Shown: one piece after another, positions 26,355 through 44,966 of the stretch
Position numbering within the stretch: position 1 is the stretch's first letter
How the letters are laid out: every line of letters begins with the position of its first letter
The notes under the pieces: model-generated
The model's input: the letters and a program-made list of their open reading frames with translations, nothing else
The model's database searches: none
What the model was told of the DNA's origin: nothing
Made by a program: the position numbers and the translations under genes
Assembly: GCA_963668025.2 (NCBI GenBank)
Contig: CAXXTH010000008.1
Location: forward strand, 32,001 to 96,000
DNA: 64,000 bases
Direction of reading: 5' to 3'
Source of the DNA: Candidatus Hydrogenedentota bacterium
GTDB taxonomy: Bacteria; Hydrogenedentota; Hydrogenedentia; Hydrogenedentales; SLHB01

Positions 26355-26411
26355 ATTATTTGACCACGCCGTCGTAAAAGTGGGGTAAACACTGTGTAAA
26401 GTTTTGGCAAA
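26355..26411 (-). promoter_or_regulatory. 11-bp-period TTTRCC array promoter 1
   Basis: TTTGCCAAAAC TTTACACAGTG TTTACCCCACT TTTACG, then TCAAAT/AATAAT. Confidence 0.75.
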
Positions 26412-26475
26412 CAGTTACTCAACCGGGCAAATAACTTCGCAATCGTTCGCGTAATAACAATCCCGTAAACAAGTG

Positions 26476-26606
26476 AATCTTGCTCAAAAAAATCTCCCGT
26501 TAATGGAGGTATGCCATGTATTCCCATGTATTCCCGTTTATTCGCATCTATTCGTGGTTCAAAAATTGGCCCAATGCTTTTTGCTTCAGATGGCTAAAGT
26601 GTTACC
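26476..26606 (-). mobile_element. Partial inverted copy of MITE family A
   Basis: reverse complement of about 4201-4320, including TIR GGCTAAAGTGTTACC (26592-26606) and the TATTCGCATCTATTCG block. Confidence 0.8.
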
Positions 26607-26686
26607 AAAACTTCAATGTATGATAGTATCATGTGGTGTCAGCAAGGTCCTCGGAATCTTGGATTGTTTTTTCAAAGGGGATAGCC

Positions 26687-29590
26687 ATGGACTCGAGGCA
26701 GGAAGACACGGCGAAGGAACCAGAGGAAACCTTCGAATCCAAACCAGTCGAAATGCTAGGAACCGTTAATAGCGGTGTTATGTGTTTCCCCGTCGTGGGC
26801 ATTGGCGCGTCCGCCGGGGGGCTGGCGGCGTTTGAAGCTTTCTTCTCCGGCATGCCTGTTGACGCCGAGCCCGGCATGGCCTTTGTCTTGGTGCAACACC
26901 TGGCCCCGGATCACAAGAGCATCCTAAGCAATCTCATTCAGCGCTACACCCGCATGCAGGTCTTCGAGGTCGAGGACGGGATGCCGGTACAGCCGAACTG
27001 CGCCTATATCATTCCTCCTAACCGTGACATGGCTTTTCTAAACGGAACATTGCAGTTGCTGGAGCCGAGCGCCCCGCGCGGCCAGCGCCTTCCAATTGAT
27101 TTCTTTTTTCGCTCCCTGGCTCAGGACCAGCATGAACTGGCTATTGGCGTCGTGCTATCGGGCACAGGCAGCGATGGCACCCAAGGTGTGCGGGCCATCA
27201 AAGGGGAAGGCGGAATCGCCCTAGCCCAGAATCCAGAATCCACCGAGTACGACGGCATGCCTCGCAGCGCCATCGCCACGGGTTTAGTGGACTATGTGCT
27301 TCCGCCAGCCGAGATGCCCGCGCAGCTCATCGCTTATGTATCCCATGCCTTCGGCAAGCCCCCCAAGGCCGAATCTCCTTTAGCGCCCAAGACCGAGAAC
27401 GCATTGAAGAAGATTTTTATCCTCTTGCGCGTACAGACCGGCCATGATTTTTCCCAGTACAAACCGTCCACCATCCAGCGCCGCATCGAGCGGCGCATGG
27501 CCGTCCACCAAATCGAGGCTATTGAGCCGTACATCACCTATTTGCAGCAGACGCCCGCGGAGGTGGAGGCGCTCTTTCTCGACCTTTTGATTGGCGTGAC
27601 TCATTTCTTCCGCAATCCGGATGCATTCAAAGCCCTTGAGGAGCAAGCCATTCCCAAGCTCTTTGCCAATACGCCTGCATTTGCCACTATCCGCGCTTGG
27701 GCGCCTGGTTGTTCCACTGGCGAAGAAGCGTATTCCATCGCCATACTGATGCAAGAACATATGGAATCCTTGAAGCAGAATTATATGGTTCAGATCTTCG
27801 CCACGGACATTGACAGCCAAGCGATCGCCACGGCCCGCGCTGGCCTGTACCCGGCGAGCATAGCCGCCGATATTTCGCCGGAACGGCTGGCGCGATTCTT
27901 CGTAGCCGAACCGGGCGGCAGCGCGTACCGCATTCAAAAGAGCATCCGGGACATGCTTATCTTTTCCGAGCAGGACGTGATCAAAGACCCGCCCTTTTCC
28001 AAAGTTGATCTGCTCAGTTGCCGGAACCTCCTCATCTATATGGGCGCGGACCTGCAAAAGAAACTCATACCATTGTTCCATTATGCATTGAAACCGGGAG
28101 GCGTGCTCTTTCTAGGCCCTTCCGAGACCGTGGGGGAATTTGGCGATCTTTTTGGCGCATTGGACCGCAGCTCAAAACTCTATCTGCGCAAGGAGAACAT
28201 GCACGGCTCAACGCACGTGGCCTTGGGCAGGTTTCTCCCGCTCATGACGGCGCAGCCGGAGGCCGCCTCTCGGGCCACCAGAAAACCGGCTTTGCCCGAC
28301 AAACTACCGCTGCGTGAGCTGACAGAGCAAGCGCTTTTACAGCAGGCTGGCCTGGCTGGAGCACTCGTCGATGGACATGGGGATATCTTCTACCTCCACG
28401 GCCGCACCGGGCTGTATCTGGAGCCAGCACCGGGCAAAGCTGGGGTCAACAATATTCTGAAGATGGCCCGGGAAGGATTGCGGAGCGATTTGGCGGCTGC
28501 GCTGCACAAGGCCGCAGGGACAAAAGGTATCATATGCCACCCCGGTTTGCGCGTTAAGACGAATGGCGATTTCACCATAGTCAACCTGACCGTCAGGCCG
28601 ATTGCCCTTGATTATGCCGAGAAGCAGGAAACGCCGCTTTTCCTCATTGTCCTGGAGGATGCGCCGAAGTTCGATCCTGAACAGATGGTGCAGATAGCCG
28701 CCGCGCATGCCATGACAGGAGCGGCGGACAGCCCCGATACGGGAGCCGATGCGCGCATCGCCATGCTCGAGCAGGAATTGCGCGCCAAGGAGGAATACCT
28801 CCAAACCGCCATCGAGGAACTCGAGACTTCCAACGAAGAACTCAAATCATCGAATGAGGAAATGCAGTCCGTGAACGAGGAACTGCAATCCACCAATGAA
28901 GAGCTCGAGACCTCCAAGGAAGAATTACAGTCGGTGAATGAAGAACTGGCCACTGTCAACGCCGAACTACAAACCAAGGTGGCGGATCTGTCGCGGGCCA
29001 ACAATGACATGAACAACCTGCTGGCTGGCACCGGCATCGCCACCGTCTTTGTCGATCATCAACTCCGTATTCTGCGCTTTACACCCACCTCCACCCAGAT
29101 CATCAACCTGATTCTGAGCGATGTCGGACGGCCCGTGGGCCACATCGTCTCCAACCTCGTAGGTTACGACCGCTTGGTGGCGGATGTGCAGGCCGTGCTG
29201 GATAGCCTCATTCCCAAGGAAGAAACGGTTCAGACGACGGCCGGTGCGTGGTTCACGATGCGCATCCAGCCTTACCGCACAATCGACAATGTGATCGAAG
29301 GCGCGGTGCTCACCTTTGTCAATGTCACCGAGATGAAGCAGGCGCAGGACTCGTTGCAAAAGGCATTCGATCAGATCAAAACCTTGCGAGGCATTATTCC
29401 CATCTGTATGCACTGCAAGAAAATCCGTGACGATAAGGGCTATTGGAACCAAGTGGAGAACTACGTCCACGATCACAGCGACGCCGAGTTCAGCCACGGC
29501 ATTTGCCCGGAATGCATGAAGGAGTTGTATCCTGAGTTCGAGCGAAACGAAGATGGAAACGCACCGCAGTCCTCGGAGGATACGCGATGA
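26687..29590 (+). CDS. CheB methylesterase-CheR methyltransferase fusion with coiled coil, PAS and C-terminal Cys/His domain
   Basis: GASAGG, VQH, GTGSDG; FFRN, GCSTGEEAYS, SCRNLLIY; EELxSxNEE heptads; ICMHCKKIRD...SHGICPEC. Confidence 0.93.
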   Translation: MDSRQEDTAKEPEETFESKPVEMLGTVNSGVMCFPVVGIGASAGGLAAFEAFFSGMPVDAEPGMAFVLVQHLAPDHKSILSNLIQRYTRMQVFEVEDGMPVQPNCAYIIPPNRDMAFLNGTLQLLEPSAPRGQRLPIDFFFRSLAQDQHELAIGVVLSGTGSDGTQGVRAIKGEGGIALAQNPESTEYDGMPRSAIATGLVDYVLPPAEMPAQLIAYVSHAFGKPPKAESPLAPKTENALKKIFILLRVQTGHDFSQYKPSTIQRRIERRMAVHQIEAIEPYITYLQQTPAEVEALFLDLLIGVTHFFRNPDAFKALEEQAIPKLFANTPAFATIRAWAPGCSTGEEAYSIAILMQEHMESLKQNYMVQIFATDIDSQAIATARAGLYPASIAADISPERLARFFVAEPGGSAYRIQKSIRDMLIFSEQDVIKDPPFSKVDLLSCRNLLIYMGADLQKKLIPLFHYALKPGGVLFLGPSETVGEFGDLFGALDRSSKLYLRKENMHGSTHVALGRFLPLMTAQPEAASRATRKPALPDKLPLRELTEQALLQQAGLAGALVDGHGDIFYLHGRTGLYLEPAPGKAGVNNILKMAREGLRSDLAAALHKAAGTKGIICHPGLRVKTNGDFTIVNLTVRPIALDYAEKQETPLFLIVLEDAPKFDPEQMVQIAAAHAMTGAADSPDTGADARIAMLEQELRAKEEYLQTAIEELETSNEELKSSNEEMQSVNEELQSTNEELETSKEELQSVNEELATVNAELQTKVADLSRANNDMNNLLAGTGIATVFVDHQLRILRFTPTSTQIINLILSDVGRPVGHIVSNLVGYDRLVADVQAVLDSLIPKEETVQTTAGAWFTMRIQPYRTIDNVIEGAVLTFVNVTEMKQAQDSLQKAFDQIKTLRGIIPICMHCKKIRDDKGYWNQVENYVHDHSDAEFSHGICPECMKELYPEFERNEDGNAPQSSEDTR

Positions 29591-31335
29591 AACACAAAGA
29601 AGATGGCCTTATAAGCGCCGCCGAACTACGCAAGCGCGCGGAAGAGATAGCACGCGAAAAAGCCGCTCCCTCGCCAAAACACGCGGAGGCGCTGACTTCC
29701 GAAGAGAGCCAGCGAGTCCTCCACGATTTGCAGGTTCATCAAATCGAGCTGGAGATGCAAAACGAGGAACTGCGCCGGGCCCAGGTGGAACTGGAGGAGT
29801 CGCGTGCGCGATATTTCGACCTGTACGACTTGGCTCCGGTAGGCTACTGCACCATATCCACAAATGGACTCATCTTGGAGGCCAACCTCACCGCCGCGAC
29901 TTTGTTGGGCGTAAGCCGGGACGCGCTGGTCAACCACCCGATTCGCCGGTTCGTCTTGAAAGCGGATCAAGTCCGTTACGATCTTCACTGTAAACATATC
30001 GTTGAGAATGGAGAACCGCAAGCGTGTGAATTGCGCATGGCGAAAAATGACGGGACCGTGTTTTGGGTGCATATGAAGGCCAGCGCGGCGAAAGATGCCA
30101 ATGGCGGCTCCGTATGGCGTGTCGTGCTGACTGATATCACCGAGCGCAAAGTAACGGAGGGATCGCTTGAAAGAGTGCATGCCGAAGTGGAGAACGAACG
30201 GCTCCGATTAGAGACGGTGATGGATGTGTTGCCAACCGGCGTGGCGATTACCGATGCCCTTGGCGGCACTATCCAGACCAATACGGAGTTCGAGCGGATA
30301 TGGGCTGGCCCGCGCCCCTCGACTCGTTCTCTCGATGATTATGCCGTGTTTAAAGGGTGGTGGATCGGCACCAGCGAACCGGTAGCGCTTGAAGAATGGG
30401 CGTCCGCCCAAGCCATACGCGAGGGCAAGGCCGTCGTGGGGCAGATGCTGGAAATCCAGCGATTCGACGGCTCCCGGGCATTCGTGATAAACAGCGCTTC
30501 CCCCGTCCGGGATGCGGCCGGAAATGTGATCGGAAGCGCCATAGCCATTCAAGACATTACGAGCCTGCGGAAGGCCGAGTTGCGCATACAAGAATTGAAC
30601 GACGCACTTAAAAAACATGTGGCCACCGTGGATGCGATGAACAAAGAGCTGGAGTCATATAGCCATTCCGTATCGCATGATTTACGGACGCCCTTGCGGT
30701 TCGTGAACCGGATTGCGCATTTGCTACTATATGAGCCTGGCGCACACCTATCAAACGGTGCTGCCCAGCAAGTAAACATGATCCTCCAGGCCACGGGCGA
30801 AATGGCTAAACTGATTGAGAGTCTTCTGGTGTTCTCGCAGATGAGCCGGGAGCCCATGAAAAAGCGCCGGGTGGACCTAAAGCGGCTTTTCCAGGAAGCA
30901 GCAAACGAATTACATCACGCACAAGAAGATTGCTGTGTGGAGATTGTAATTGAAGACTTACCTCCATGCCAGGGAGATCGAACGCTCCTGAAGGAGGTCG
31001 TGGTGAACCTGTTGGGGAACGCCCTCAAGTTCACACAGCGGCGTGAACAGGCGCGGATCACGATCGGCTGTACGGAGGCTGCGGATGAAACCGCTTATTT
31101 TATCCAAGATAATGGCGTAGGCTTTGATATGAGTGATGCGGACTCCCTGTTCGTTCCGTTTCACAGGCTTCACAAACCGGCCGACTTTGAGGGATCAGGA
31201 ATTGGCCTGGCTCTCGTCAAGCGCATTATTGAACGGCACGGAGGCCGTGTATGGGCGCTTGGCGAAATCGACAAAGGGGCAACGTTCTTCTTTACGCTGG
31301 GTAAAGAGACGGCGGACAACGATGAATCAAATTAA
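29587..31335 (+). CDS. Cytoplasmic PAS-PAS sensor histidine kinase
   Basis: LQVHQIELEMQNEEL leader, two PAS domains, H-box SHDLRTPL, NLLGNALKF, DNGVGF, GSGIGL; ATGA overlap with upstream gene. Confidence 0.95.
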   Translation: MKHKEDGLISAAELRKRAEEIAREKAAPSPKHAEALTSEESQRVLHDLQVHQIELEMQNEELRRAQVELEESRARYFDLYDLAPVGYCTISTNGLILEANLTAATLLGVSRDALVNHPIRRFVLKADQVRYDLHCKHIVENGEPQACELRMAKNDGTVFWVHMKASAAKDANGGSVWRVVLTDITERKVTEGSLERVHAEVENERLRLETVMDVLPTGVAITDALGGTIQTNTEFERIWAGPRPSTRSLDDYAVFKGWWIGTSEPVALEEWASAQAIREGKAVVGQMLEIQRFDGSRAFVINSASPVRDAAGNVIGSAIAIQDITSLRKAELRIQELNDALKKHVATVDAMNKELESYSHSVSHDLRTPLRFVNRIAHLLLYEPGAHLSNGAAQQVNMILQATGEMAKLIESLLVFSQMSREPMKKRRVDLKRLFQEAANELHHAQEDCCVEIVIEDLPPCQGDRTLLKEVVVNLLGNALKFTQRREQARITIGCTEAADETAYFIQDNGVGFDMSDADSLFVPFHRLHKPADFEGSGIGLALVKRIIERHGGRVWALGEIDKGATFFFTLGKETADNDESN

Positions 31336-31348: not shown

Positions 31349-32074
31349 TTGGCAACGGATACAAAAACTAAGATTCTGCTCGTGGATGACGACCGGAAGC
31401 TTCTGCGGGAGGTGCAGTCTCATTTGGAGAAGCTCGGTTATGAGGTGGCGACCGCGGAGGATGGACGCGCTGCGTTGAAGCTTGTCCAGTCAATGTCTCC
31501 GGACCTGGTGGTGCTCGACATCAATTTCCCCTATTCTAGGAAGGAGACAAGCCATCCTATTGATGGAGTGGAAGTGCTTCGAAGGATGCGGGAGTCGGGC
31601 AATATTCCCATCCTCATGCTAAGCACCACGAACAGCTCCGCGGTAAAAGTGATGGCGCTCAGTATCGGCGCGGACGACTATGTGTCCAAACCGTTTGAGC
31701 TTCAAGAACTCGGCGCACGAATTGAAGCGATTCTGCGGAGGACCGAACATGAGCTGCCGGGGGAACAGGCGCTGATTTTCCACCGTTTGCGATTGGACCC
31801 TGGGGAAAGGCGCGTCTGGAAAGATGAATCTACTATTGAACTAACCGGCATCGAGTTTGATATCCTATACACGCTTGCCCGGCGGCCCAAACACGTGTTT
31901 ACCCGCGAAAAAATCATTGAACTCGCATGGAAAGACTCCAACTACTGCGTTCCAAAAGCCGTCGATGTGCATATCGGGCATATTCGAAAAAAGATCGAGG
32001 ATGATCCCAGCGCGCCTGCCTTCATCGTGACGGTGCGTGGAACTGGCTACCGGTTTGAAGACGTTCCCGAGTAG
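31349..32074 (+). CDS. OmpR/PhoB-family response regulator
   Basis: LLVDDD, VLDI, GADDYVSKPF, wHTH LTGIEFDIL...VDVHIGHIRKKIE...TVRGTGYRF. Confidence 0.95.
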   Translation: MATDTKTKILLVDDDRKLLREVQSHLEKLGYEVATAEDGRAALKLVQSMSPDLVVLDINFPYSRKETSHPIDGVEVLRRMRESGNIPILMLSTTNSSAVKVMALSIGADDYVSKPFELQELGARIEAILRRTEHELPGEQALIFHRLRLDPGERRVWKDESTIELTGIEFDILYTLARRPKHVFTREKIIELAWKDSNYCVPKAVDVHIGHIRKKIEDDPSAPAFIVTVRGTGYRFEDVPE

Positions 32075-32088: not shown

Positions 32089-34185
32089 TCAAATGTGAGA
32101 GAAAAAATGCACAGCGAATCGTGAGGCGAAAAAGATCTCACACGCCATTGTATAAGGAATTCGAAGTATATTGATGCCCAGGAGCTGTCCGGCCTTGATT
32201 CGCCGGATTGAGTCCTGGCGGAAGGCGTTGAATTGGCGGCGCTTGGCCACATAACGGATCGCGGTTTCTTCGTACCCAGCGATGACCGTCTTGCTCACGA
32301 ATTGCTCCGCATCGGTGACCTGCCTCCAACTCGGCGCTTGCATGTCGAAGGCCCTCAGGAAGCTTTCCACCTCCGTTTTTTTCTTCTGCAGCTTGCGCCG
32401 GATTAAAAAGCTTATATGGCTGCCTGTTCCACTCATCTGGTTAAACCGTTCCATCGTGCTGGACAGCATCGTTTTGATTTCCAGGGCGGCGTCGGAGTAG
32501 CGCTTCTGAAGGCCGTATTCCGCAATATGTCGCTGCGTATCAGTCCATTTCTGGCGCAATTCGGCAAGGGCGGCCCAGCGTGGATCATGAGGCTTGCGGG
32601 TGAGCATCCAAATTTCCTGGAACTCGAAAAAGAGGCCAAGGTATGTCCTCAGGCCAACGTATGAGTCCTGTATGCGGCGCCAAGCATATCGGGATACGTT
32701 TTCGCGCGGGAAGATTGGACGCCGGGAACGCCGCTCCTTGAGGCGGAAGACCCCAGTCGCCATTGGATGCATACCCGTCAATGTGCCGTAGCGGTACCAG
32801 ATCGAAAACCCCATGACTTCCCAATAATGCTGGGACTCCGTGCGTAATAGCGCGGCAATGATGTTCTCCTTGCTGTACAGGATATGCATGGCCTCGTCAT
32901 ATGCGGCGCGCCACGCTCCGTCTGGCATGAGCTTGTGCTGAAATGTCTCGTGAAGCCCGTCATAATTGTTATAGTCGCTTTCGATGGGGACGTTGTCCTG
33001 AATCATCTGCCAATGGTCGCGGGAGCCAGGAAGCGGAGTCAGCATGAACAAAGACGCTAGGTCTATTTTGAGTTGATTGCGCATATATTCAATGTCAGCG
33101 CGGACGGATTCTCGTGAATCGAATGGCATGCCGATGATGTACCCAGCATGAACCAATATGTTGTTGTGCCGCCAGGTTTCCACCATCTGCGGATACTCGT
33201 GTGTGTTATTTTGCTGTTTGCCCACCGCTTTCAAATTTTCGGGATTCACGCTTTCCATTCCAATGAACGCGAGGTAGCATCCAGCCAGAGCCGCTTTCTC
33301 CACAAAATTCGGGATACGGTATGCCTGGGTGTCCGTCTGCATCATGAACTGGATCATTATGCCCTTGCTTCTCAATGCGGCAAGCCCATCGAAGATCTCT
33401 TCCCACACGGGATTTCGTGAAAAATTGTCATCGGTGAAAAAGTACACGTGAATCCCGCGCGCCCAGTTCTCCTCAATAGCTTTTAGCACCAATGCAGCAG
33501 GCCGATGGCGCATCTTGCGCCCTTGCACATTGATGATCGTGCAAAACGAACAATTGAATGGGCACCCGCGGCTGGTATCCATTGTGGCCATGTGGCGCGT
33601 AAGAAACCGGTGCTGCATTTTTTTACTGGCGCACGGCACGGGCGCTTTCTCCAGGTCTGGCCACTCCGTGATAGCGTAGATAGGTTTCAGCGCGCCATGA
33701 AGAGCGTCACCCAGCAGCATCGCCATGACCCCTGGCGCTTCCACTTCACCTTTCACCAGCGCCACCCCGTGGTCCAAGAGACGCTGGAGTTCACACGAAG
33801 GTTTCTCGAACAGCGACAGCACGCCACTGACGTGGAACCCCCCGATCATGACCTGTACGCCTTGCTCCCGCAATTCCAGGGCAAGGTCGGAGGCGCGCAT
33901 GAATTGGTTGCTCTGCACCCCTACAAAGCCCACGACGGCCACCGCGCCGGGCCGTCGGTTGAGTTTCGCGATACGGTGAATGGGAATTCGCTGCACGGTG
34001 TCGTCGAACGCTTCTACGGTGACTTGAACATCCGGGCCCAGTTCACCCTGTTGCGCTACGCGTTCGGCCAGGCTTTCGAGACAGCCAAGGGTGTTCGACG
34101 GCAAGACGCCGCGTGCAAAGCGGACTACATAACCGTCGTCATCGTAGCGTGATGGGCGGATAAATATTACATGCAAGTGCTTCAT
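32089..34185 (-). CDS. Radical SAM protein (B12-binding-like N-terminus, long C-terminal extension)
   Basis: SRGCPFNCSFC, FFTDDNF, GMES, LTPLPGS; GGAGG RBS. Confidence 0.9.
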   Translation of the reverse strand: MKHLHVIFIRPSRYDDDGYVVRFARGVLPSNTLGCLESLAERVAQQGELGPDVQVTVEAFDDTVQRIPIHRIAKLNRRPGAVAVVGFVGVQSNQFMRASDLALELREQGVQVMIGGFHVSGVLSLFEKPSCELQRLLDHGVALVKGEVEAPGVMAMLLGDALHGALKPIYAITEWPDLEKAPVPCASKKMQHRFLTRHMATMDTSRGCPFNCSFCTIINVQGRKMRHRPAALVLKAIEENWARGIHVYFFTDDNFSRNPVWEEIFDGLAALRSKGIMIQFMMQTDTQAYRIPNFVEKAALAGCYLAFIGMESVNPENLKAVGKQQNNTHEYPQMVETWRHNNILVHAGYIIGMPFDSRESVRADIEYMRNQLKIDLASLFMLTPLPGSRDHWQMIQDNVPIESDYNNYDGLHETFQHKLMPDGAWRAAYDEAMHILYSKENIIAALLRTESQHYWEVMGFSIWYRYGTLTGMHPMATGVFRLKERRSRRPIFPRENVSRYAWRRIQDSYVGLRTYLGLFFEFQEIWMLTRKPHDPRWAALAELRQKWTDTQRHIAEYGLQKRYSDAALEIKTMLSSTMERFNQMSGTGSHISFLIRRKLQKKKTEVESFLRAFDMQAPSWRQVTDAEQFVSKTVIAGYEETAIRYVAKRRQFNAFRQDSIRRIKAGQLLGINILRIPYTMACEIFFASRFAVHFFSHI

Positions 34186-34272
34186 GGGTTTTCCTCCCAG
34201 AAACGCCTCTCCAGGCATCCGAAGCGCTGGTCCCTACTTGGCGCGGTCTCAGAACGCTCTGCTTTTCGCGCA

Positions 34273-34437
34273 TCAGAAGCCGCGAGGGAGACGCCCCAAC
34301 AGCATGAGCACCAACACGATTACAAGCACAAGCCCCAAAACGCCGCTGGGACCGTAGCCCCAGTTTCGGCTGTAGCCCCATCTGGGCAATCCGCCCACGA
34401 GCAACAGGACCACAATAATGAACAAGATCAAACCCAT
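34273..34437 (-). CDS. DUF3309 family small membrane protein
   Basis: LLVGGLPRWGYSRNWGYGPSG; RBS GAGGAG. Confidence 0.9.
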   Translation of the reverse strand: MGLILFIIVVLLLVGGLPRWGYSRNWGYGPSGVLGLVLVIVLVLMLLGRLPRGF

Positions 34438-34528
34438 GATAGGCTCCTCTCTTATGTTGACTCTGAACGCTTCCACTCACCGCCGTCTCTTGGCAATCAC
34501 ATGTGGCCGCGCTCTTTTCATCGATATG

Positions 34529-34582
34529 ATTTTGCCAGACTCACGTAATGTACGGGTAAAATGGAGGTAAAGCTTCAGTAAA
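34529..34582 (-). promoter_or_regulatory. 11-bp-period array promoter 2
   Basis: TTTACTGAAGC TTTACCTCCAT TTTACCCGTAC ATTACG, then CAAAAT. Confidence 0.75.
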
Positions 34583-35913: not shown

Positions 35914-37735
35914 GAGGCATTTGCGAAATAGCGTGGTTTGCGAACGCGCGGACGGTGCGGGCACACGCGGAGCGGTTTTCGCCTGTGGCAATGGGATTAC
36001 GCCTCCGCTACGGGTGCAATAAATCATGCAGGAGGTTCGCGTGTAGGACCCTTGCGGCCCGAATGGGCATGGTTTGCCCTTGATTCGGGCCATCATTGCT
36101 TGTGCGGATTCGATGTGATCTATGCGGCGCGGGGCTGTCCGAGGAGCGAGCGCATGCGTTCTGCCTGGCCGGCTTCGAGCCATCCCAGGGCCATGCCGAG
36201 CATGACGAGGAGGGCTAATCCGGTGCGGGCGCGCATCTTTTTCATACCGCGGATGTAGTGGCGCTCGAATCCGTATGCGCCGTCGAGTCGGCTGTTGACT
36301 CGCTCGATGGCGGTGCGGTGTTTGTATTCGCGGCGCCAGGATTTGGCGCTGCGGGGCAGGGGGGTAAAGATGCGCCGGTCGATAGCGATGGGCACGCGGA
36401 CAATCCGTCCGTGTTCGGGCTGGCATCCTTGGTTGCAGAGGTCTTGCTGGGTACAGGCGCTCCCGCGTGCCTTGGCTGGGCAACGGTATTTCAAGGTTCC
36501 CCGATCTTGCTCGAATCCTTGGTAGGCCATGGAATCATAGTTGTCGCGTTCGTTTGGGGCGCCGTTACGACACCGGCAGAGGACTTCACCTCGTTCGGTA
36601 TGGAAGATCGTGTCTACCCGTTCGGGATATAAAGGGCGGGGCCGTTCCGGTTCTTCTTTCCAGGTCGCCCGGATGTCCACGATGGGCCGGATTTCATGTT
36701 CCTCGAAGAGGCCCTTGTTGTTGGCTTCGGAATCATAGCCCTTGTCGGCGCTGAGGTACTCGGCGCGTTGGACGAGTTCGGGGTGGCGCGCGTCGAGAGC
36801 CGCCACGAGGGGCAGCAGAAAGGGCGAGTCGTTGGCGCTGGCTTTCGTGACCGCGTAGCCCAGCGGCAATTCATATTTCGTGTCCACGATGAGGTGCAGC
36901 TTGTAGCCGAACCACCGTTTGACCTTCTCCCAGGGCGTGCCGTCCTTGTGAACGCCCTTGTAGGTTTTCGTGCCCCAGTCTGCGTCGCGGTCGCGCCGCC
37001 CGTCCGGCTCTTCGTTTTCCAGGACCGCGTCTTTGCGCGGAGGCTTGGCGTGGGTTTGGATGGCTTTCGAGTCTACGGCCAGACGCACCCCGAGATCCGG
37101 CAAGCGTTCCATCAGCCGGACGATGAGCGCGTCGAACATCCGGTCCACTTCTTTCCAGTGGCGCAGTAATCTGGCGAAGAACCGCGTGTACACCCATTCG
37201 GGCGGGACCGCCTTGGCGCCCCGCAACACGTCGAATCCGCACAACTGGCGCAATTGCCCGTTTCGGGCTAGTTCGCGGCGCAGGCTTTCGACGCCGTCGT
37301 GCTGGAAGACGATCCCCGCCAGTATGCTGTTCCACATCGCGCGGATAGGATAATCGTCGCGCCGCCCCTTGCGTTCGGCTTCCATCGCCCGCATCAAATC
37401 TTCATCCGGCAGCGCCGCCAGCAACAGGTTCAGCCGATCCAGATCCGACGCCGCGTCGACCTGGTTCCACGAGAACAACCCCATTTGGTGTATAATGGCC
37501 ATCGCAAACGTCTCCTTGGTGTGTGCGTGGTTATGTGGTCAACTATACTACAATCACACACGGGAGACGTTACGCCTTTTCCCGCTCGCCGAGGGCATTT
37601 GGGGTGATTTTTCACAAAAAATCCTTATTCATGCCCCCGCCAAGCCCCTTTCCCCGCATTCTCCGGGGTAGGCGCCAATTCCGCCGCTTTGTAAACCCTT
37701 GTCAATACGGATTTTCTTTATTTCGCAAATGCCTC
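35914..37735 (-). mobile_element. Complete IS element, 1822 bp (IS1182/IS5-like DDE)
   Basis: perfect 17-bp TIRs GAGGCATTTGCGAAATA/TATTTCGCAAATGCCTC; 6-bp TSD GGAGAT at 35908-35913 and 37736-37741. Confidence 0.95.
36120..37502 (-). CDS. DDE transposase
   Basis: AVDSK, FGYKLHLIVD, ADKGYDS, YKHRTAIERVNSRL. Confidence 0.93.
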   Translation of the reverse strand: MAIIHQMGLFSWNQVDAASDLDRLNLLLAALPDEDLMRAMEAERKGRRDDYPIRAMWNSILAGIVFQHDGVESLRRELARNGQLRQLCGFDVLRGAKAVPPEWVYTRFFARLLRHWKEVDRMFDALIVRLMERLPDLGVRLAVDSKAIQTHAKPPRKDAVLENEEPDGRRDRDADWGTKTYKGVHKDGTPWEKVKRWFGYKLHLIVDTKYELPLGYAVTKASANDSPFLLPLVAALDARHPELVQRAEYLSADKGYDSEANNKGLFEEHEIRPIVDIRATWKEEPERPRPLYPERVDTIFHTERGEVLCRCRNGAPNERDNYDSMAYQGFEQDRGTLKYRCPAKARGSACTQQDLCNQGCQPEHGRIVRVPIAIDRRIFTPLPRSAKSWRREYKHRTAIERVNSRLDGAYGFERHYIRGMKKMRARTGLALLVMLGMALGWLEAGQAERMRSLLGQPRAA

Positions 37736-37757: not shown

Positions 37758-37812
37758 ATCTCACGAATGACATCGTAAAAGGCGGGCAAAAAGCGGGTAA
37801 GGTTTTGGCAAA
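37758..37812 (-). promoter_or_regulatory. 11-bp-period array promoter 3
   Basis: TTTGCCAAAAC CTTACCCGCTT TTTGCCCGCCT TTTACG, then TGAGAT. Confidence 0.65.
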
Positions 37813-37931: not shown

Positions 37932-39077
37932 TTATTTTTTGGAAATCCCACCCCGATCCCTGCTCCCGAAAATACCTTGAAGATTCATCTTGAGCGCTTC
38001 CGGATTGTCTGAGGCCCATTCAGCGGCTTCTTGAGTAACAAATTTCTGCTTTACTAGACTTACAAGCGCCATATTGAAGGTTTGCATACCGTCCTCCGCG
38101 CCGTCCGCGATGACATTGGGAATGCGCTCGATCTCGTTATCGCGAATCAGCGAAACAATGCCAGGAGCGTTGAACATGATCTCGACGGCGGGAATGCGGC
38201 CTTTTCCGTCGGCGGAAGGGAGGAGCCGTTGTGAGACGATAGCGCGGAGTTGCAGTGCGAGCTGCGACCTGATCTGCGCGTTCTGGTCCGGCGAGAACAT
38301 GTCCAGAATGCGGCCAATCGTCATTGTGACATTCGTAGTGTGTAGTGTACTAAAAACAAGGTGGCCGGTTTCAGCCGCTCCGAGGCACGTCTGGCATGTT
38401 TCCGCGTCACGCATCTCGCCAATTAGGATCACATTGGGATCTTCACGCAAGATGGCTCTTAGGCCCGTCTTGAAATCCTTTGTATCGATCAAGACTTCGC
38501 GCTGGCTCACGCTGCATTTTTTATCCGTGTGTAAATACTCGACGGGATCTTCGAGCGTCACAATGTGGCTTTGGTGAGTCGCGTTGATGCGGTCAATGAG
38601 CGCGGCCAGCGTGGTCGATTTTCCACTGCTTGTCGTTCCTGTGACAAGCACTAAGCCACGGGAAAAAGACGCTATGCGTTCCATCGCTTTCTTAGGTAAA
38701 TTCAACGCCCCAAAGTCTCGAATATCGGACTTGATATAACGGAGAGCCATTGCGCTGGTTCCCCGTTGCCGGTAGCAGTTTATGCGAAATCGCCCCAGGT
38801 CCGAGATGCTTACCGCAAAGTCTGTATCACCTGTCTCATGAAAGCACTGCTTCTGCTGCGGAGTCATGATTTCGTCTAGAAATCGCATCATGTCATTTTC
38901 TGTTAGCTCGCGTATTTCCGTGAATCTCAACACTCCTTCAATGCGGATGGCGGGCGGCCTAGAGACTTTCAGGTGAATATCGGAATCCCCGTTATCCAGT
39001 GCATATGCGGCAATCCGGCGCAGGGAAAGCTCTTCAATGAGCTGTTCTTTCTTTTTGAAATGATTTGGCGTATCCAA
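37932..39077 (-). CDS. PilT/PilU-family type IV pilus retraction ATPase
   Basis: SDIHL, GTTSSGKSTT, TLEDPVE, LREDPNVILIGEMRD, ETGHLVFSTLHT, GMQTF. Confidence 0.93.
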   Translation of the reverse strand: MDTPNHFKKKEQLIEELSLRRIAAYALDNGDSDIHLKVSRPPAIRIEGVLRFTEIRELTENDMMRFLDEIMTPQQKQCFHETGDTDFAVSISDLGRFRINCYRQRGTSAMALRYIKSDIRDFGALNLPKKAMERIASFSRGLVLVTGTTSSGKSTTLAALIDRINATHQSHIVTLEDPVEYLHTDKKCSVSQREVLIDTKDFKTGLRAILREDPNVILIGEMRDAETCQTCLGAAETGHLVFSTLHTTNVTMTIGRILDMFSPDQNAQIRSQLALQLRAIVSQRLLPSADGKGRIPAVEIMFNAPGIVSLIRDNEIERIPNVIADGAEDGMQTFNMALVSLVKQKFVTQEAAEWASDNPEALKMNLQGIFGSRDRGGISKK

Positions 39078-39158: not shown

Positions 39159-39896
39159 TTACTTAAATATCTGTTTCAAGTCGTTGAAAGCACTTTCGAC
39201 CCCAACCTTGACCGTTTCCCAACGATCAGCGCTTGCTGATTTCAACTCGTTGAGCTTATTAGCGGCCACATCTAGCTTCGTTTTCGCTTCCGCGAGCTTC
39301 AGTTCGAGGTCTGTCTTGGCTTGCCCTTCAGCTTTGGCTGCGTTATCTTTCAACTCGGTATACTTTGTATTGAATTGATCCCACTCTTTCTGCATGGCGA
39401 TTTTGTATTCATCCCATTTCACTTTGGCGGCATCCGCTGCCACATTGGCCTCCTTGGTGGGTTCTTGTTTCACAACGGATATTTTTAACTCGGATACGGC
39501 ATCGGCGCCCTTTGTCGGGTGTCCAGTTACTTTAACCGTGAAATCACCCAGGGCTGCGTCCTCCGCAGCTTTGAGTGTCAGTTTCGTCTCTTTATCACCG
39601 TGTTTGATAAGGGGGCTCGCGGATTCGAGGGTCACGCCCTTAGGCAAATCGTTCAGTTTCAACGATACGTCTTCACTGAAGTTCGTTCCCCGGTCGATCC
39701 CGACGGAAGCGGTCACGGTCTCTCCCTGGTTTACTTTCATTGACGGCATGGACAAACTGAATGTGTCGTCAATCTGTCCTGTCATAGGTTTCTTGGTAGG
39801 CGGGCTTGAAGCGCCAGGGCCCCCTGAAGTACCCTGATTGCATCCCACTAGAATTATCAATACTCCAAACAAGATAACACTTAAATAGGCTTTCAT
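39159..39896 (-). CDS. Lipoprotein with an Ig-like domain and C-terminal coiled coil
   Basis: lipobox LVGC; beta-rich middle; LKSASADRWETVKVGVESAFNDL tail. Confidence 0.8.
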   Translation of the reverse strand: MKAYLSVILFGVLIILVGCNQGTSGGPGASSPPTKKPMTGQIDDTFSLSMPSMKVNQGETVTASVGIDRGTNFSEDVSLKLNDLPKGVTLESASPLIKHGDKETKLTLKAAEDAALGDFTVKVTGHPTKGADAVSELKISVVKQEPTKEANVAADAAKVKWDEYKIAMQKEWDQFNTKYTELKDNAAKAEGQAKTDLELKLAEAKTKLDVAANKLNELKSASADRWETVKVGVESAFNDLKQIFK

Positions 39897-40028: not shown

Positions 40029-40232
40029 TCACGACTTCAGGGTCTTCACGAAATCATCGAGTTCTTTGTGCGCCTGATCCTTTTCGTAGCCATAGCGCTC
40101 CTGGAGCTTTCCAGCAAGGCGCGTGCGCTTACCGGCGATGGCGGCCAGGTCATCGTCGGTCAGTTGGCCCCACTTCTCTTTAACTTTGCCTGTAAACTGT
40201 TTCCAGTTGCCTTCGATTTGATCCCAGTTCAT
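40029..40232 (-). CDS. CsbD/YjbJ family stress protein
   Basis: MNWDQIEGNWKQFTGKVKEKWGQLTDDDL...LQERYG. Confidence 0.95.
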   Translation of the reverse strand: MNWDQIEGNWKQFTGKVKEKWGQLTDDDLAAIAGKRTRLAGKLQERYGYEKDQAHKELDDFVKTLKS

Positions 40233-40373
40233 GATAAGTCTCCTTGAGAAAACGTTATAGCTATTCCACATGGCCGCAGCCTTATGACTACGGCGATAAT
40301 CCTTCAGATGGCTATGCCATCCTGCTTGGGAAGAAAGCCTGCGCTAACCAGAGTGCGTACAATACACTTCCCT

Positions 40374-40538
40374 CTAGAAGCCACGAGGGATATATCCCAA
40401 GAGAAAGAGCACTACCAAGATCAGCAACACCAGCCCCAATCCGCCACTGGGGCCATAACCCCAATTCCGGCTATGCGGCCAGGTGGGGAAGGCGCCAAAA
40501 AGCAGCACGATTATCACAATTAATAAAATCAGCCCCAT
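40374..40538 (-). CDS. DUF3309 family small membrane protein (second copy)
   Basis: GAFPTWPHSRNWGYGPSGGLG; RBS AAGGAG. Confidence 0.9.
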   Translation of the reverse strand: MGLILLIVIIVLLFGAFPTWPHSRNWGYGPSGGLGLVLLILVVLFLLGYIPRGF

Positions 40539-40666
40539 GGTATGAACTCCTTTTCGAGGTGTATACCCAGTAATAGCCGCCGCCGTGAACGCCACGGCGG
40601 AAGCTATTTGACATACGACTCTGGATTTGGCGGGCAAGCCGGTTATCCGTATAAAAATGGATACCC

Positions 40667-41248
40667 CTACTTCTTGGGGGAATCAGCACTCTCCGCTTCT
40701 TTCTTTACTTTCTCCTCCGCCTCTTTCTTTGCTTTCTCTTCCGTCACTTTCTTGTTGTCGCTCTCCATTTTCTTCATCATTTTGTCGTGCATTTCCTTAT
40801 GCATTCCCATCATGGAGGTCGGTTCACCGGCTACATCCGCCAATGTTTTCTGCTGCTCTGGCGTTAATACGGCGGCAGATTGCTGCCTGCTCTCTTTAAT
40901 AATCTGCTCCAATTTCTGAGCCTGCTCAGGGGTGAGCTTGAGCTCTTCTTTGAGCGCAAGAAGGCATGCCGCATCATTTTTGGACATTTCGGTATTCATC
41001 ATCATCTTGCAACACTGCTTCTTGGCCGGAGGCATGTCCATTTCTTTACACATGCCTTTTCCTTCACCTGCCATCATGGGGCACATTGGGCACGCTGGCA
41101 TTGGCGCTTTCGCCTGCGCTCCTTCTGCTTTTGTTTCTGCTGGCGCAGGGCTGGACGGTGTCGTTTCCGCACCCGCGAGCGAAGCGCCGAAGACCATACT
41201 AACCAAGGCGATACTGGCGATTAATGTAATTATGTACCCTGTTTTCAT
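40667..41248 (-). CDS. Exported Spy/CpxP-like (LTXXQ) Met/Cys-rich protein
   Basis: signal peptide; LTPEQ twice; CPMCPMM, CCKMMM, MMGMHKEMHDKMM. Confidence 0.7.
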   Translation of the reverse strand: MKTGYIITLIASIALVSMVFGASLAGAETTPSSPAPAETKAEGAQAKAPMPACPMCPMMAGEGKGMCKEMDMPPAKKQCCKMMMNTEMSKNDAACLLALKEELKLTPEQAQKLEQIIKESRQQSAAVLTPEQQKTLADVAGEPTSMMGMHKEMHDKMMKKMESDNKKVTEEKAKKEAEEKVKKEAESADSPKK

Positions 41249-41315
41249 TGTTTTATTCTCCCGTTTCGTTTTCGCCACAATGATGGACGCTAATCGCCCA
41301 TCTCCTCACTTCACT

Positions 41316-41858
41316 TCATGACATCTTCTCATTCTGGAGTTCCTCTACCGAGTAGTGCCCGACATGCGTTGACCCAGTTGCCTGAAGGATCGTTTTCGCC
41401 CGAGCAACCTCTTGCTCGGAACCATGTGCAACCAGCAGAAATTCGTCCGCCTTTAGGGCGGTCTCATACTGCAAAATGCTGTCTTTTGGGATGCCTATGC
41501 TATAAAGGCCCGCACCGAGGACACTCATTCCTCCCATAACTACCGCCCCCTCAAGTACGGACACGATCACTTGAACAAGCGGCCCCGCAACCACAAGCGG
41601 CCCAAGCCCGGGGATCAGGAAGAACGCCGACCCAAATAACAGGCTCCATACGCCACCCCAGAACGCGCCAAGCTTTCCCCAATATTTCATCCTGTCGCCG
41701 ACATTGTAGTATCCGACGACATGTTCCTCGGTGTGGTAATCTTTACCGACAATCGAAAGCCTCTTCATCTCGAATCCCGCATGCTGCAATTCCTTAATGG
41801 CCGCTTCAGCATCTGTGTGTGTTTGGTACACAGCCACTATCGTGCTATTCTTAGACAT
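41316..41858 (-). CDS. General stress membrane protein (YflT/DUF1269-like)
   Basis: AEAAIKELQHAGF, LSIVGKDYHTEEHVVGYY, IPGLGPLVVAGP, GIPKDSILQYE. Confidence 0.85.
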   Translation of the reverse strand: MSKNSTIVAVYQTHTDAEAAIKELQHAGFEMKRLSIVGKDYHTEEHVVGYYNVGDRMKYWGKLGAFWGGVWSLLFGSAFFLIPGLGPLVVAGPLVQVIVSVLEGAVVMGGMSVLGAGLYSIGIPKDSILQYETALKADEFLLVAHGSEQEVARAKTILQATGSTHVGHYSVEELQNEKMS

Positions 41859-41953: not shown

Positions 41954-42007
41954 AGAGTAACGCGGAAACACAAAGGGTGGGCAAAGCTCCGGTAAAGCTT
42001 CAGTAAA
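41954..42007 (-). promoter_or_regulatory. 11-bp-period array promoter 4
   Basis: TTTACTGAAGC TTTACCGGAGC TTTGCCCACCC TTTGTG, then TACTCT. Confidence 0.78.
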
Positions 42008-42104: not shown

Positions 42105-42123
42105 AGCCGGAATACCAAGAATT

Positions 42124-43191
42124 TCACTCAATTACGGAAAGCTCGACTCGGCGGTTTTTATACATATTGTCTGGACTGTCATTTGGAACAGCCGGCTTGT
42201 TCTCGCCATATGCGTTGGTTTCCAGCCGGGATGCATCTACACCACGCTGCACTAAAGCTGCTTTCACCGCATTGACACGCCGTTCAGACAGCTTCTGGTT
42301 ATATTGTGTCGACGCATTAGAGTCTGTGTGCCCTTGAAGATGGATGCGTATCTTAGGATTCTCCTTTGTCATCGCGACCGCCTCCCCAAGAAGGCCATCG
42401 TATGTGGACGCAATTACCGAGCTGTCATTGTCGAAAAGGATATTATTGAGCTTCCAGGCTACGGCTGGAGGCGCAGGTTTCGGCGCAGGCTGCGGCGCTT
42501 CTTTGGGTCCGAGGAAAATATCGCGGACCATAGCGTCTATCGCGGCAGCGGTATTAAGCGAAGCGCCGTCGTAGTATTTGCCGCAACCATTCACCGCGGC
42601 CATCTCCTGCAACAGTTTTGCACCACGCTCGGAAGATCCCACCTGCACAGTGAAAATGCATAATTCGCCATTATGCGCTGCTTTTATGTCTTGGCATGCT
42701 TGCAGAACCTCTTCCGGTATACGCACCTTGCCGTCCGAGAAGACCAACAAGGCGCTGCGTCCAGGTTTTCCCGAGAACTCCGCCTCCTGGCAACGAATGG
42801 CGCGCGCCAACGGCGTTAACGAGCCCAGTGGTTTCAGGCTAGATGCGCTTCTGGCCATCACCGTACGGCTGAACGGCTCCAAGGGCTGCTTGACACACAG
42901 GCTGCTTTTCACCCCTGCGAACGAATCCATTCCGGACTCGTATTTTCCGTCCGGCATGGCTGCTGTAAAGGCCTGCACCAGCGCCTTCTCCTCTTCGTAC
43001 ACGCTGGTCGAACCAATGGAGCCCGTAACATCCACAAGGATGATCAACTGATCCCGGATAATTTGTTCATTCTCCTTTGGAACGACAGGCGTCACGCTCA
43101 ACCTTTTTGCGTTGGTAAAAGTCTGGCAACCCACTATTAGTATAAGTGTAATACAGCATAGAATTCCTTTACTCCATATTGCAGTTTTCAT
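42124..43191 (-). CDS. vWA-OmpA fusion lipoprotein
   Basis: lipobox IVGC; MIDAS-like DVTGS...TPL...SDG; OmpA GHTDS..YNQKLSERR..NRRVE. Confidence 0.88.
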   Translation of the reverse strand: MKTAIWSKGILCCITLILIVGCQTFTNAKRLSVTPVVPKENEQIIRDQLIILVDVTGSIGSTSVYEEEKALVQAFTAAMPDGKYESGMDSFAGVKSSLCVKQPLEPFSRTVMARSASSLKPLGSLTPLARAIRCQEAEFSGKPGRSALLVFSDGKVRIPEEVLQACQDIKAAHNGELCIFTVQVGSSERGAKLLQEMAAVNGCGKYYDGASLNTAAAIDAMVRDIFLGPKEAPQPAPKPAPPAVAWKLNNILFDNDSSVIASTYDGLLGEAVAMTKENPKIRIHLQGHTDSNASTQYNQKLSERRVNAVKAALVQRGVDASRLETNAYGENKPAVPNDSPDNMYKNRRVELSVIE

Positions 43192-43417
43192 GGGACGTTC
43201 TCTCCTTTCGTACTTAATGTTCTGGCCCCACCCCGGCCGTGGACCATCCGCGAAGCCACATACCCTCTTATTCCGCTTCAGCACAAGATAGACAACGGCC
43301 TAGCTCGTGCTCCTCCTCGAAAATTCGGCCGCCTTTTAACCTGAGACAATATGCTGGCCGGCTTCCGCCCGTCATGCGCACACATTTATTTGGAGGCGGC
43401 ATGCCGTCCACCTTCTC

Positions 43418-43471
43418 AACATAACAAGGGAACATGAAGTGGTGGTAAAACATAGGTAAAGCTTCAGTAAA
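43418..43471 (-). promoter_or_regulatory. 11-bp-period array promoter 5
   Basis: TTTACTGAAGC TTTACCTATGT TTTACCACCAC TTCATG, then TATGTT. Confidence 0.78.
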
Positions 43472-43538: not shown

Positions 43539-43593
43539 TTTACCAAATCTTTACGATTTCTTTGCCGTGGCTTTCCTTGGATATGGCTATATT
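43539..43593 (+). promoter_or_regulatory. 11-bp-period array promoter 6 (divergent from promoter 5)
   Basis: TTTACCAAATC TTTACGATTTC TTTGCCGTGGC TTTCCT, then TATATT. Confidence 0.78.
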
Positions 43594-43674
43594 GTGGAGT
43601 AAAGGTTTCTTGCCTTCGGGTGCGTGTGGTCTCACCCATCGAGGGCCAACAATTCACCACGTGAGGAAATGCAG

Positions 43675-44601
43675 ATGCATAAGCAAAGCCCGTTCGCAAT
43701 ATTACTGGCTGGCGCAGTCCTTCTTCCTTTTGTAGTGATTGCCGCCACAAGTAGATTCTTTGGACATCCATATTTTGGCATGGCCGTGGTTGTGGTTGGA
43801 TTAGGCATCGCGATTCTGACCCTTTCCGCTGTTAAAGTCGCGAATCAGTGGGAGCGGGTCGTCGTTTTGCGGCTCGGGAAATATTTGTCTCTCCGTGGCC
43901 CCGGCTTATTCATCATCGTTCCCGTCATTGATTCGGTTCCCTTCTGGATTGACACCCGCGTCATTACCGCCTCTTTCAAAGCAGAGAAGACATTGACTAA
44001 GGATACGGTTCCTGTAGACGTTGATGCTGTCCTGTTCTGGAAGGTGGTCGATCCAGAGAAAGCCGCTCTGGAAGTGGCCCAATACCAGACGGCTATCGGC
44101 TGGGCGGCCCAAACGGCGTTGCGCGATGTTATCGGCAAGACTATGTTGGCGGACATGCTCACCGGTCGGGAGATGATTGATACTGATCTTCAGAAAATCA
44201 TCGATAAACGAACTGAACCGTGGGGTATCCATGTCCAATCGGTTGAGATTCGTGACGTGCTCATTCCCGCGGCGCTGGAAGATGCCATGTCGATGCAAGC
44301 TCAGGCCGAACGTGAGCGGCAAGCCCGAGTCATCCTAGGAGATTCCGAACGCCAAGTCGCTGAGAAGTTTGAAGAGGCTTCCCGGACCTATGTCAACAAT
44401 CCCACCGCATTACATCTCCGGGCGATGAATATGCTATACGAAGGGCTTAAACAAAATTCTACGTTAGTTATAGTACCAAGCAGCGTCGTGGACACAATGC
44501 AACTAGGAAATCTGGCTGGCATGACCGCTTTGGCTATGGAGCTGAGCCGGAAAAACGAACAGAAACCATGTTCGCAGGAAGAGAACCAAGACGCCACATG
44601 A
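43675..44601 (+). CDS. SPFH/band-7 (stomatin-like) protein
   Basis: ERVVVLRLG, GPGLF, TKDTVPVDVDAV, AQTALRDVIG, QAQAERERQAR. Confidence 0.95.
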   Translation: MHKQSPFAILLAGAVLLPFVVIAATSRFFGHPYFGMAVVVVGLGIAILTLSAVKVANQWERVVVLRLGKYLSLRGPGLFIIVPVIDSVPFWIDTRVITASFKAEKTLTKDTVPVDVDAVLFWKVVDPEKAALEVAQYQTAIGWAAQTALRDVIGKTMLADMLTGREMIDTDLQKIIDKRTEPWGIHVQSVEIRDVLIPAALEDAMSMQAQAERERQARVILGDSERQVAEKFEEASRTYVNNPTALHLRAMNMLYEGLKQNSTLVIVPSSVVDTMQLGNLAGMTALAMELSRKNEQKPCSQEENQDAT

Positions 44602-44849
44602 GTACCCTAAATGCAGTAACTTGTAGAAGGTTAAATAAAATGCATTACTACATTATTATAGACCGAAAAACTTCTGAGCAAGCCGGACCCGATGCGACTT
44701 TCCAGGTGGTCTCCATCGAAGACGATGAAGGCAACAACTATACGGAGTCCATAGGAATTGATCAGCGCGTACACTATCATTCCTTAGAAGAACTCGCGGA
44801 AGAAATTGAGCGGTTAACTGGTGAGCCCGCGGAACTTGATGAATTGTAG
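44598..44849 (+). CDS. Small acidic hypothetical protein (start may be 44640)
   Basis: ATGA overlap with the SPFH stop; globular-looking acidic sequence. Confidence 0.55.
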   Translation: MSTLNAVTCRRLNKMHYYIIIDRKTSEQAGPDATFQVVSIEDDEGNNYTESIGIDQRVHYHSLEELAEEIERLTGEPAELDEL

Positions 44850-44912
44850 CGTTCCTGCACTCTCCTATATGGCGCACGACCCCAAATTGGCAGGCGCACA
44901 TGGAAAATGCCG

Positions 44913-44966
44913 ATTACCAAAGCTTTGCCTAACCTTTGCCTAAACTTCATCTCGGACAGGTACGCT
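44913..44966 (+). promoter_or_regulatory. 11-bp-period array promoter 7
   Basis: ATTACCAAAGC TTTGCCTAACC TTTGCCTAAAC TTCATC, then TACGCT. Confidence 0.72.

Follow-up and report, generated by a model that had tools for sequence, protein, structure and literature searches.

The island studied here, in the genome of a Candidatus Hydrogenedentota bacterium, carries seven promoter regions in which four TTTRCC-like boxes follow each other at an exact period of 11 base pairs (bp), just upstream of a -10-like hexamer. Each array is probably a tandem site at which the OmpR/PhoB-type response regulator of the same island (31349-32074) binds, once phosphorylated, as four copies; it would activate the downstream genes as PhoB does. 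The window, i.e., the whole stretch of 64,000 bp that was analysed, is C8:32001-96000 of an assembly of 6,145,620 bp in 24 contigs. Coordinates given without a contig or locus name refer to the window.

Seven arrays of four boxes in one island

The seven arrays, aligned on the sense strand of their respective downstream gene, are the following, each consisting of four 11-bp units.

26358..26411, minus strand: array 1, first box starting at 26411(-), boxes 26411 to 26368, -10-like TCAAAT at 26363-26358; the target is a sigma-region-2-like gene of 105 amino acids (aa)
34529..34582, minus strand: array 2, first box starting at 34582(-), -10-like CAAAAT at 34534-34529; the targets are a DUF3309 gene and a radical S-adenosylmethionine (SAM) gene
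37758..37812, minus strand: array 3, first box starting at 37812(-), -10-like TGAGAT at 37763-37758; the downstream gene is severed by an insertion sequence
41954..42007, minus strand: array 4, first box starting at 42007(-), -10-like TACTCT at 41959-41954; followed by six same-strand genes: YflT, LTXXQ-like, DUF3309, CsbD, lipoprotein and PilT-like
43418..43471, minus strand: array 5, first box starting at 43471(-), TG-extended -10 TATGTT at 43423-43418; the target is a VWA-OmpA lipoprotein gene
43539..43593, plus strand: array 6, first box starting at 43539(+), -10-like TATATT at 43588-43593, divergent from array 5; the targets are an SPFH gene and a conserved open reading frame (ORF) of 93 aa
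44913..44966, plus strand: array 7, first box starting at 44913(+), -10-like TACGCT at 44961-44966; the targets are genes for a receiver-only protein, DUF1328, entericidin and a WXXGXW protein

Reading all of these places confirmed what the initial annotation had claimed, i.e., seven arrays at these positions with four units each and an exact 11-bp period. Units 1-3 read TTTRCC in all arrays, save single departures in array 3 (CTTACC) and array 7 (ATTACC), and unit 1 usually tends towards TTTACCRAAnC. Unit 4 is looser in the alignment (TTTACG, ATTACG, TTTGTG, TTCATG, TTTCCT, TTCATC), just as the initial annotation, which called it usually degenerate, had it. The exact sequence said to be shared by three arrays is indeed found: TTTACTGAAGCTTTACC, 17 bases, is identical in arrays 2, 4 and 5. 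The -10-like hexamer, whose last base is always T, begins 15 bp from the start of unit 4 in arrays 1, 2, 4, 5 and 7 and 16 bp from it in arrays 3 and 6, in line with the 15-16 bp first proposed. A downstream gene is faced by every array in the window (7/7). Seven of the eight promoters found in this genome, see below, are packed into 18.6 kilobases (kb), and array 7 is the most widely conserved of the seven.

A fixed element follows the fourth box

For a broader view of the promoter geometry, 88 arrays from the window and 35 loci, belonging to this genome and 21 relatives, were aligned on box 1. Many of these loci were picked because arrays are present in them, and related genomes are not independent samples. 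The columns of box 4, which were unused in the selection, are conserved (T33 in 76/88 and T34 in 79/88 arrays). The same is true of columns past box 4, equally unused in the selection: T45 (46/88), G46 (74/88), G47 (57/88), T48 (50/88), A49 (56/88), A51 (49/88), A52 (44/88) and T53 (76/88). The consensus, TGnYAnAAT, is that of an extended -10, with the hexamer beginning 15 bp from the start of box 4, so that the earlier -10-like hexamer is sharpened to an extended -10 across the 88 arrays. This hexamer would presumably act as the -10 of the promoter. Among the arrays, conservation is limited to the hexamer cores, and the spacers vary.

The -10 hexamer follows the conserved hexamer of box 4 at a distance of 9 bp. 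If T53 corresponds to position -7, the array covers approximately -60 to -17, and the fixed extended -10 next to box 4 therefore suggests that the arrays span this region and replace the -35 element. None of the arrays holds a -35/-10 pair in a scan with the sigma-70 consensus, which is what one would expect of promoters that depend on an activator. The transcripts are predicted to begin near 26351, 34522, 37751, 41947 and 43411 on the minus strand and near 43600 and 44973 on the plus strand.

The arrays are rare and restricted to one period

Within the window, 12 matches are obtained for a three-box pattern when at most one mismatch is allowed; every one of them falls on the seven arrays, with 0 elsewhere, against 0.06 expected (100 shuffles, largest count 1). 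Genome-wide, the exact three-box pattern matches 9 times, at 7 places, when the period is 11, and never when it is 9, 10, 12 or 13. These seven places are five of the window arrays, C9:121478(-) and a weak site on C23. The site at C9:121478(-), on another contig, is an eighth full four-box site, and it lies upstream of genes for a leucine-rich-repeat lipoprotein and a beta-lactamase-fold protein. Thus, the statement of the initial annotation that no array exists outside the island holds for the window, where nothing else matches, but not for the genome.

A unit matrix was also built from 24 units (boxes 1-3) and summed over three units. Sums above 26 bits occur in the genome at 8 places at period 11 and at none at eight other periods, with some circularity in the scan, since the same 8 sites had served to train the matrix. 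For two-unit sites, no enrichment is seen outside the arrays: 18 were found at period 11, mostly the arrays themselves, versus 4-9 at other periods. In the window, including the region upstream of the regulator operon, two-box sites were sought and none was found beyond the arrays save one at 43130, within the OmpA-domain gene, which is probably due to chance. From the matrix and two-unit scans, the regulon in this genome would therefore comprise eight promoters. The initial annotation had proposed a genome-wide search for the motif as a check, and the motif turns out to be rare and confined to period 11, not common across the genome.

Arrays and regulator are inherited together

The comparison set consists of 135 genomes of the phylum. 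At an orthologue threshold of E <= 1e-75, the regulator has orthologues in 26/135 genomes, with 53-76% identity, and their distribution is patchy (14/53 in the family to which the genome of the window belongs). The exact three-box pattern occurs 153 times in 45 genomes, versus 19 times for a reversed-pattern control. Genomes with an orthologue account for 107 of these matches (21/26 genomes) and genomes without one for 46 (24/109). The linkage is also local: in a matrix scan, an array lies within 6 kb on the same contig at 21/27 orthologue loci outside this genome, often within 500 bp, and conservation of the arrays in homologous islands, side by side with the regulator orthologues, is thereby borne out.

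The same genes recur in related islands, where their order is shuffled. A gene of a recurrent family starts within 400 nucleotides (nt) downstream of 54/88 arrays, in a set of loci that were partly chosen for their arrays. The first downstream gene encodes a receiver-only protein at 19 arrays, DUF3309 at 13 and YflT at 4. Entericidin, WXXGXW, lipoprotein, radical SAM, NTP-transferase, sigma-like, CsbD, LTXXQ-like and SPFH genes are each found in 3-8 loci, the LTXXQ-like homologues standing downstream of arrays in 4. The receiver-only gene often adjoins the regulator gene with the array in between (L142, L147, L154). In five fragmented assemblies in which no orthologue was found, clear four-box arrays precede the usual target genes as well (e.g., L150, L151, L152). 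Arrays in relatives also precede a KaiC/RadA-like ATPase gene (L139:5248-6993(-), genome G114) and a PRC-barrel-like gene (L133:10953-11936, genome G108), both labelled from sequence reading alone.

The co-occurrence across the phylum and the linkage support what the initial annotation had proposed from the letters of the window, namely that the arrays are likely sites of the OmpR-family regulator of the island and would define a small private regulon.

Several observations weigh against this assignment. No array above the threshold was found at 6/27 orthologue loci; three of these are contigs of 3-4 kb, one holds a degenerate array, which stands before a receiver-only gene, and two encode regulators of 54% identity. 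The exact pattern is missing from five orthologue-bearing genomes. Conversely, five genomes (G123, G119, G065, G066 and G050) carry clear arrays and have no match to the regulator at E <= 1e-45, and they hold 23 of the 46 orthologue-free matches. An array was sought upstream of the regulator's own operon and none was found; there is therefore no autoregulatory tie. The kinase and CheB-CheR genes adjoin the orthologue in one examined locus only (L134). Finally, the dependence among related genomes and the choice of loci for their arrays, mentioned above, count here too.

The regulator and its operon

Between arrays 1 and 2 lies an operon of three signalling genes.

26633..29590, plus strand: fusion of CheB methylesterase, CheR methyltransferase and PAS, whose gene opens the kinase-regulator operon
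29587..31335, plus strand: cytoplasmic PAS histidine kinase, 582 aa, the gene start overlapping the end of the upstream gene
31349..32074, plus strand: OmpR/PhoB-type response regulator, 241 aa, the proposed binder, with a receiver (PF00072, 7.6e-27) and a Trans_reg_C winged helix (PF00486, 2.1e-24)

Neither the kinase, which has no hydrophobic segment, nor the regulator contains a membrane segment. The kinase reaches 79 bits against the CpxA model (cut-off 486). The CheB-CheR-PAS protein contains a long coiled coil and ends in a tail rich in Cys and His, and the stop codon of its gene and the start of the kinase gene overlap. This arrangement points to a methylation module coupled to a transcriptional two-component system.

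The regulator falls below every NCBIfam equivalog cut-off, with the following scores.

RpaB model NF045944: 190.7 bits, cut-off 330 (best-scoring NCBIfam model)
MtrA model: 187 bits, cut-off 300
PhoB model TIGR02154: 174.8 bits, cut-off 296.2
OmpR model: 167 bits, cut-off 331
CpxR model NF008199: 146.2 bits, cut-off 341
NF007546, also used to judge PhoB orthology: 127 bits, cut-off 471

Its closest relatives of solved structure are MtrA, RpaA, PrrA, RegX3 and KdpE. When genome contigs were searched with the regulator, only generic OmpR-family matches of at most 42% identity were obtained, and a protein atlas gave generic clusters of response regulators with no taxonomy attached. The genome encodes three further OmpR-type paralogues, 35-49% identical to it. 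The recognition-helix stretch PK(A/V)VDVHIGHIRKK is retained in most orthologues and differs in the three paralogues; it is also altered in the two array-less loci with regulators of 54% identity.

Relation to known regulatory systems

Four promoter types described in other bacteria offer points of comparison. PhoB binds direct repeats with an 11-bp period (8 bp and a 3-bp linker) located 10 bp upstream of the -10, where they replace the -35, and SphR of Synechocystis requires three or more 8-bp repeats in tandem, joined by 3-bp linkers (PMC1906773). CpxR sites consist of two GTAAA repeats separated by 4-8 nt and are functional in either orientation; CpxR also activates the neighbouring gene for the LTXXQ protein CpxP (PMC5063474). 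The HLR1 element of RpaB is a single pair of (G/T)TTACA(T/A)(T/A) repeats with 2 nt between them, and sites located upstream are activating (PMC6525291).

The arrays share with the pho boxes of E. coli the 11-bp direct repeats near a -10 without a -35, and the regulator is likewise a receiver followed by a winged helix. The combination found here is that of a PhoB-type activator promoter: a nearby receiver/winged-helix regulator, head-to-tail repeats of about one helical turn, an adjoining -10 without a -35, and co-inheritance. Unlike in the PhoB system, the boxes read TTTRCC and always come as four units, where two are the minimum for PhoB, the targets encode stress and membrane proteins, the regulator scores 175 versus 296 bits, and the kinase is a cytoplasmic PAS protein. 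Membership in the Pho regulon was rejected, as the regulator is not a PhoB orthologue (174.8 vs 296.2 bits) and no phosphate uptake or scavenging genes are among the targets in the window or among the recurrent families.

In Bacillus subtilis, PhoP-activated promoters carry four TT(A/T/C)ACA-like (TTAACA-like) hexamers at 11-bp spacing, and in the number as well as the sequence of the units these promoters would come closest to the arrays. Compared with SphR and B. subtilis PhoP, the regulon and the signal are different here and the NCBIfam models give no orthology.

RpaB provides the best-scoring model for the regulator, and the HLR1 core is close to TTTACC. However, HLR1 is one pair with a 10-bp period, whereas four units at 11 bp are found here, the targets are unrelated to photosynthesis, and the regulator is far under the 330-bit cut-off; RpaB/HLR1 membership was rejected on this score (190.7 bits) and on the number and period of the units.

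With CpxR/CpxA the likeness lies in the box, since GTAAA is the complement of the TTTAC core, and the differences lie in the four units at 11 bp and in a kinase without membrane or periplasmic part. The regulator is not a CpxR orthologue (146.2 vs 341 bits) and the kinase lacks a membrane segment, so Cpx membership was rejected. The initial annotation had called the regulon Cpx-like. With a score of 146 versus 341 bits, no membrane kinase, four 11-bp units and an LTXXQ match below threshold, this label is not supported: the box core and one weak target match are all that is alike, and the term therefore denotes a loose resemblance and not membership.

Alternative explanations

The arrays could serve another winged-helix regulator, either a paralogue or the product of a gene outside the assemblies, with the neighbouring regulator merely co-inherited. 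We regard this as unlikely. The five genomes with arrays and no orthologue at E <= 1e-45 are the main opening for a different binder; however, they are fragmented assemblies (480-1060 contigs, 82-94% complete), and the regulator gene may simply be missing from them. The three additional OmpR-type paralogues could be such binders, but their recognition helices differ from the one kept in most orthologues. The missing array before the regulator's own operon also fits a foreign binder, whereas the array within 6 kb at 21/27 orthologue loci does not, and no DNA-binding protein other than the island regulator was found in the cluster of the window.

It is very improbable that we are looking at this phylum's version of a named and hence already known system, be it the Pho regulon (PhoB/SphR) or the Cpx envelope-stress regulon. 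The phasing of 11 bp and the position are pho-box-like (PMC1906773), and the TTTAC core with one weakly LTXXQ-like target recalls CpxR. Yet the regulator misses both cut-offs, neither phosphate-uptake nor phosphatase genes are found among the targets, the kinase is cytoplasmic and the LTXXQ match is sub-threshold. We give just as little credence to the idea that the arrays do not serve an activator at all and are instead recognised by an alternative sigma factor (e.g., one involving the sigma-region-2-like protein), bound by a repressor or derived from a small mobile repeat. The island does encode a sigma-like fragment, which also stands among the targets, but it lacks the promoter-reading parts, and four equal direct repeats at 11 bp are no sigma-factor signature. 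The 17 identical bases common to three arrays could point to mobile copies; however, conserved hexamer cores with differing spacers are unlike such copies. As for a repressor, the array ends upstream of the -10 and not over the start site, a position that favours activation. A tandem site for the island regulator, acting as an activator, remains the preferred reading.

Target genes and surroundings of the arrays

The genes of the cluster beyond the signalling operon are as follows.

25894..26211, minus strand: 105-aa protein resembling only region 2 of an extracytoplasmic function (ECF) sigma factor (weak match), target of array 1
32089..34218, minus strand: 709-aa radical SAM protein, downstream of DUF3309
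34273..34476, minus strand: DUF3309 small membrane protein, copy 1
34978..35859, minus strand: ORF of about 293 aa without Pfam family, presumed original target of array 3
35914..37735, minus strand: insertion sequence, 1822 bp, with a DDE transposase gene at 36120-37502 and perfect 17-nt inverted ends
37932..39077, minus strand: PilT/PilU-family ATPase, last gene of the array-4 run
39159..39896, minus strand: 245-aa lipoprotein without family, conserved in related islands
40029..40271, minus strand: CsbD-like protein
40374..40637, minus strand: DUF3309 small membrane protein, copy 2
40667..41278, minus strand: secreted 203-aa protein, LTXXQ (CpxP/Spy-type) match of 18.1 bits, sub-threshold (24.3)
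41316..41858, minus strand: YflT-domain stress protein with two membrane segments
42124..43284, minus strand: VWA-like and OmpA-domain lipoprotein
43624..44601, plus strand: SPFH/Band 7 membrane protein
45029..45481, plus strand: 150-aa receiver-only response regulator
45695..45862, plus strand: DUF1328 small membrane protein
45932..46153, plus strand: entericidin-family lipoprotein
46221..47834, plus strand: 537-aa protein with WXXGXW repeats, whose gene is also conserved in relatives, behind those for the receiver and entericidin

Pfam upheld the gene list of the initial annotation apart from the Spy/CpxP-like entry, whose LTXXQ match stays under the cut-off. No terminator was predicted between the six genes of the array-4 run, and the VWA-OmpA gene terminates at a strong terminator-like hairpin (42100-42079). 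Taken together, the targets seem closer to a general or osmotic stress set than to one for envelope folding.

The insertion sequence at array 3 encodes a transposase of the DDE_Tnp_1/DUF772 type, is flanked on both sides by the same six bases, ATCTCC, and is present in at least 26 full-length, 100%-identical copies across the assembly. It lies about 16 nt past the predicted transcript start of array 3 with the transposase gene in the same direction, and therefore array 3 may now read into the transposase and not into the ORF of about 293 aa.

The sigma-region-2-like proteins form a family of 105-115 aa that matches NF058625 (E 4.7e-6), the rest of an ECF sigma factor being missing. Homologues are found at L118:15851-16195, L136:9157-9504, L146:2370-2714 and L135:4757-5095; they are conserved in the islands, usually close to the regulator and downstream of an array, and may act as decoys for a sigma partner. 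The stretch of about 690 bp beyond the sigma-like gene (25205-25893) contains no convincing ORF and no Pfam or Rfam match, and is, judged by eye, AT-richer than its surroundings.

The cluster is flanked by ordinary chromosomal genes (Nqr, histidine synthesis, a resistance-nodulation-division (RND) pump and a GH94 glucan synthase), and no integrase was seen. The GH94-family protein to the right of the cluster, of the cyclic beta-1,2-glucan synthase type, has 2953 aa (49623-58484(+)), and no array precedes its gene. Elsewhere in the window, a single ORF at 62752-63690(-) fuses a CheD domain and a receiver domain, and Rfam found over the whole window one tRNA only (60538-60610).

A possible mechanism

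We suggest that the signal enters through the cytoplasmic PAS kinase (29587-31335), probably, perhaps tuned by the CheB-CheR-PAS protein. Four head-to-tail copies of the phosphorylated regulator, i.e., two dimers, would then fill the four boxes, where the 11-bp units would align all of them along the same side of the DNA. With 4-5 bp between the last unit and the TG-extended -10, the array would stand in for the -35. The promoter would have a good extended -10 and no -35, and the promoter-proximal copy could aid the polymerase by recruiting or holding it, like PhoB at pho boxes.

The eight promoters would in this way raise small membrane and stress proteins (DUF3309 twice, CsbD, YflT, DUF1328, entericidin, SPFH and the OmpA-domain lipoprotein), and the output would also include the radical SAM enzyme, the sigma-region-2-like protein and the receiver-only protein. 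The last of these, the best conserved of the targets, may compete for phosphoryl groups and thereby exert feedback on the phosphorelay.

Significance

What the sequences describe is a new, neatly delimited predicted regulon of the known PhoB-type kind, with tandem 11-bp boxes abutting the -10, in an unstudied phylum. A literature search returned no work treating DUF3309 and CsbD together, and the listings on Hydrogenedentes and response regulators, from which this was judged, contain nothing on these arrays. Where papers on TTTACC, response regulators and direct repeats were examined in their passages, this motif was not described. Tandem 11-bp boxes abutting a -10 are a textbook OmpR/PhoB design, and therefore no principle is changed.

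For bacteria without genetics, the regulon is sharply defined: the regulator, a 44-bp site, predicted starts and the targets are all named. It provides a common regulatory setting for several widespread proteins whose function is unknown, namely DUF3309, DUF1328, the 245-aa lipoprotein, the WXXGXW protein and the large radical SAM enzyme. It also hints that stress genes that are sigma-controlled elsewhere can be under two-component control. More speculatively, the general-stress set of this phylum (CsbD, YflT, DUF1328, entericidin, SPFH, OmpA-type and DUF3309), which is sigma-controlled elsewhere, may be run by one two-component regulator through four-box promoters, with the PAS kinase and CheB-CheR as input and the receiver-only and sigma-region-2-only proteins as modulators. 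If this were true, the cluster would amount to a compact and portable island for stress responses, with a signalling logic of its own.

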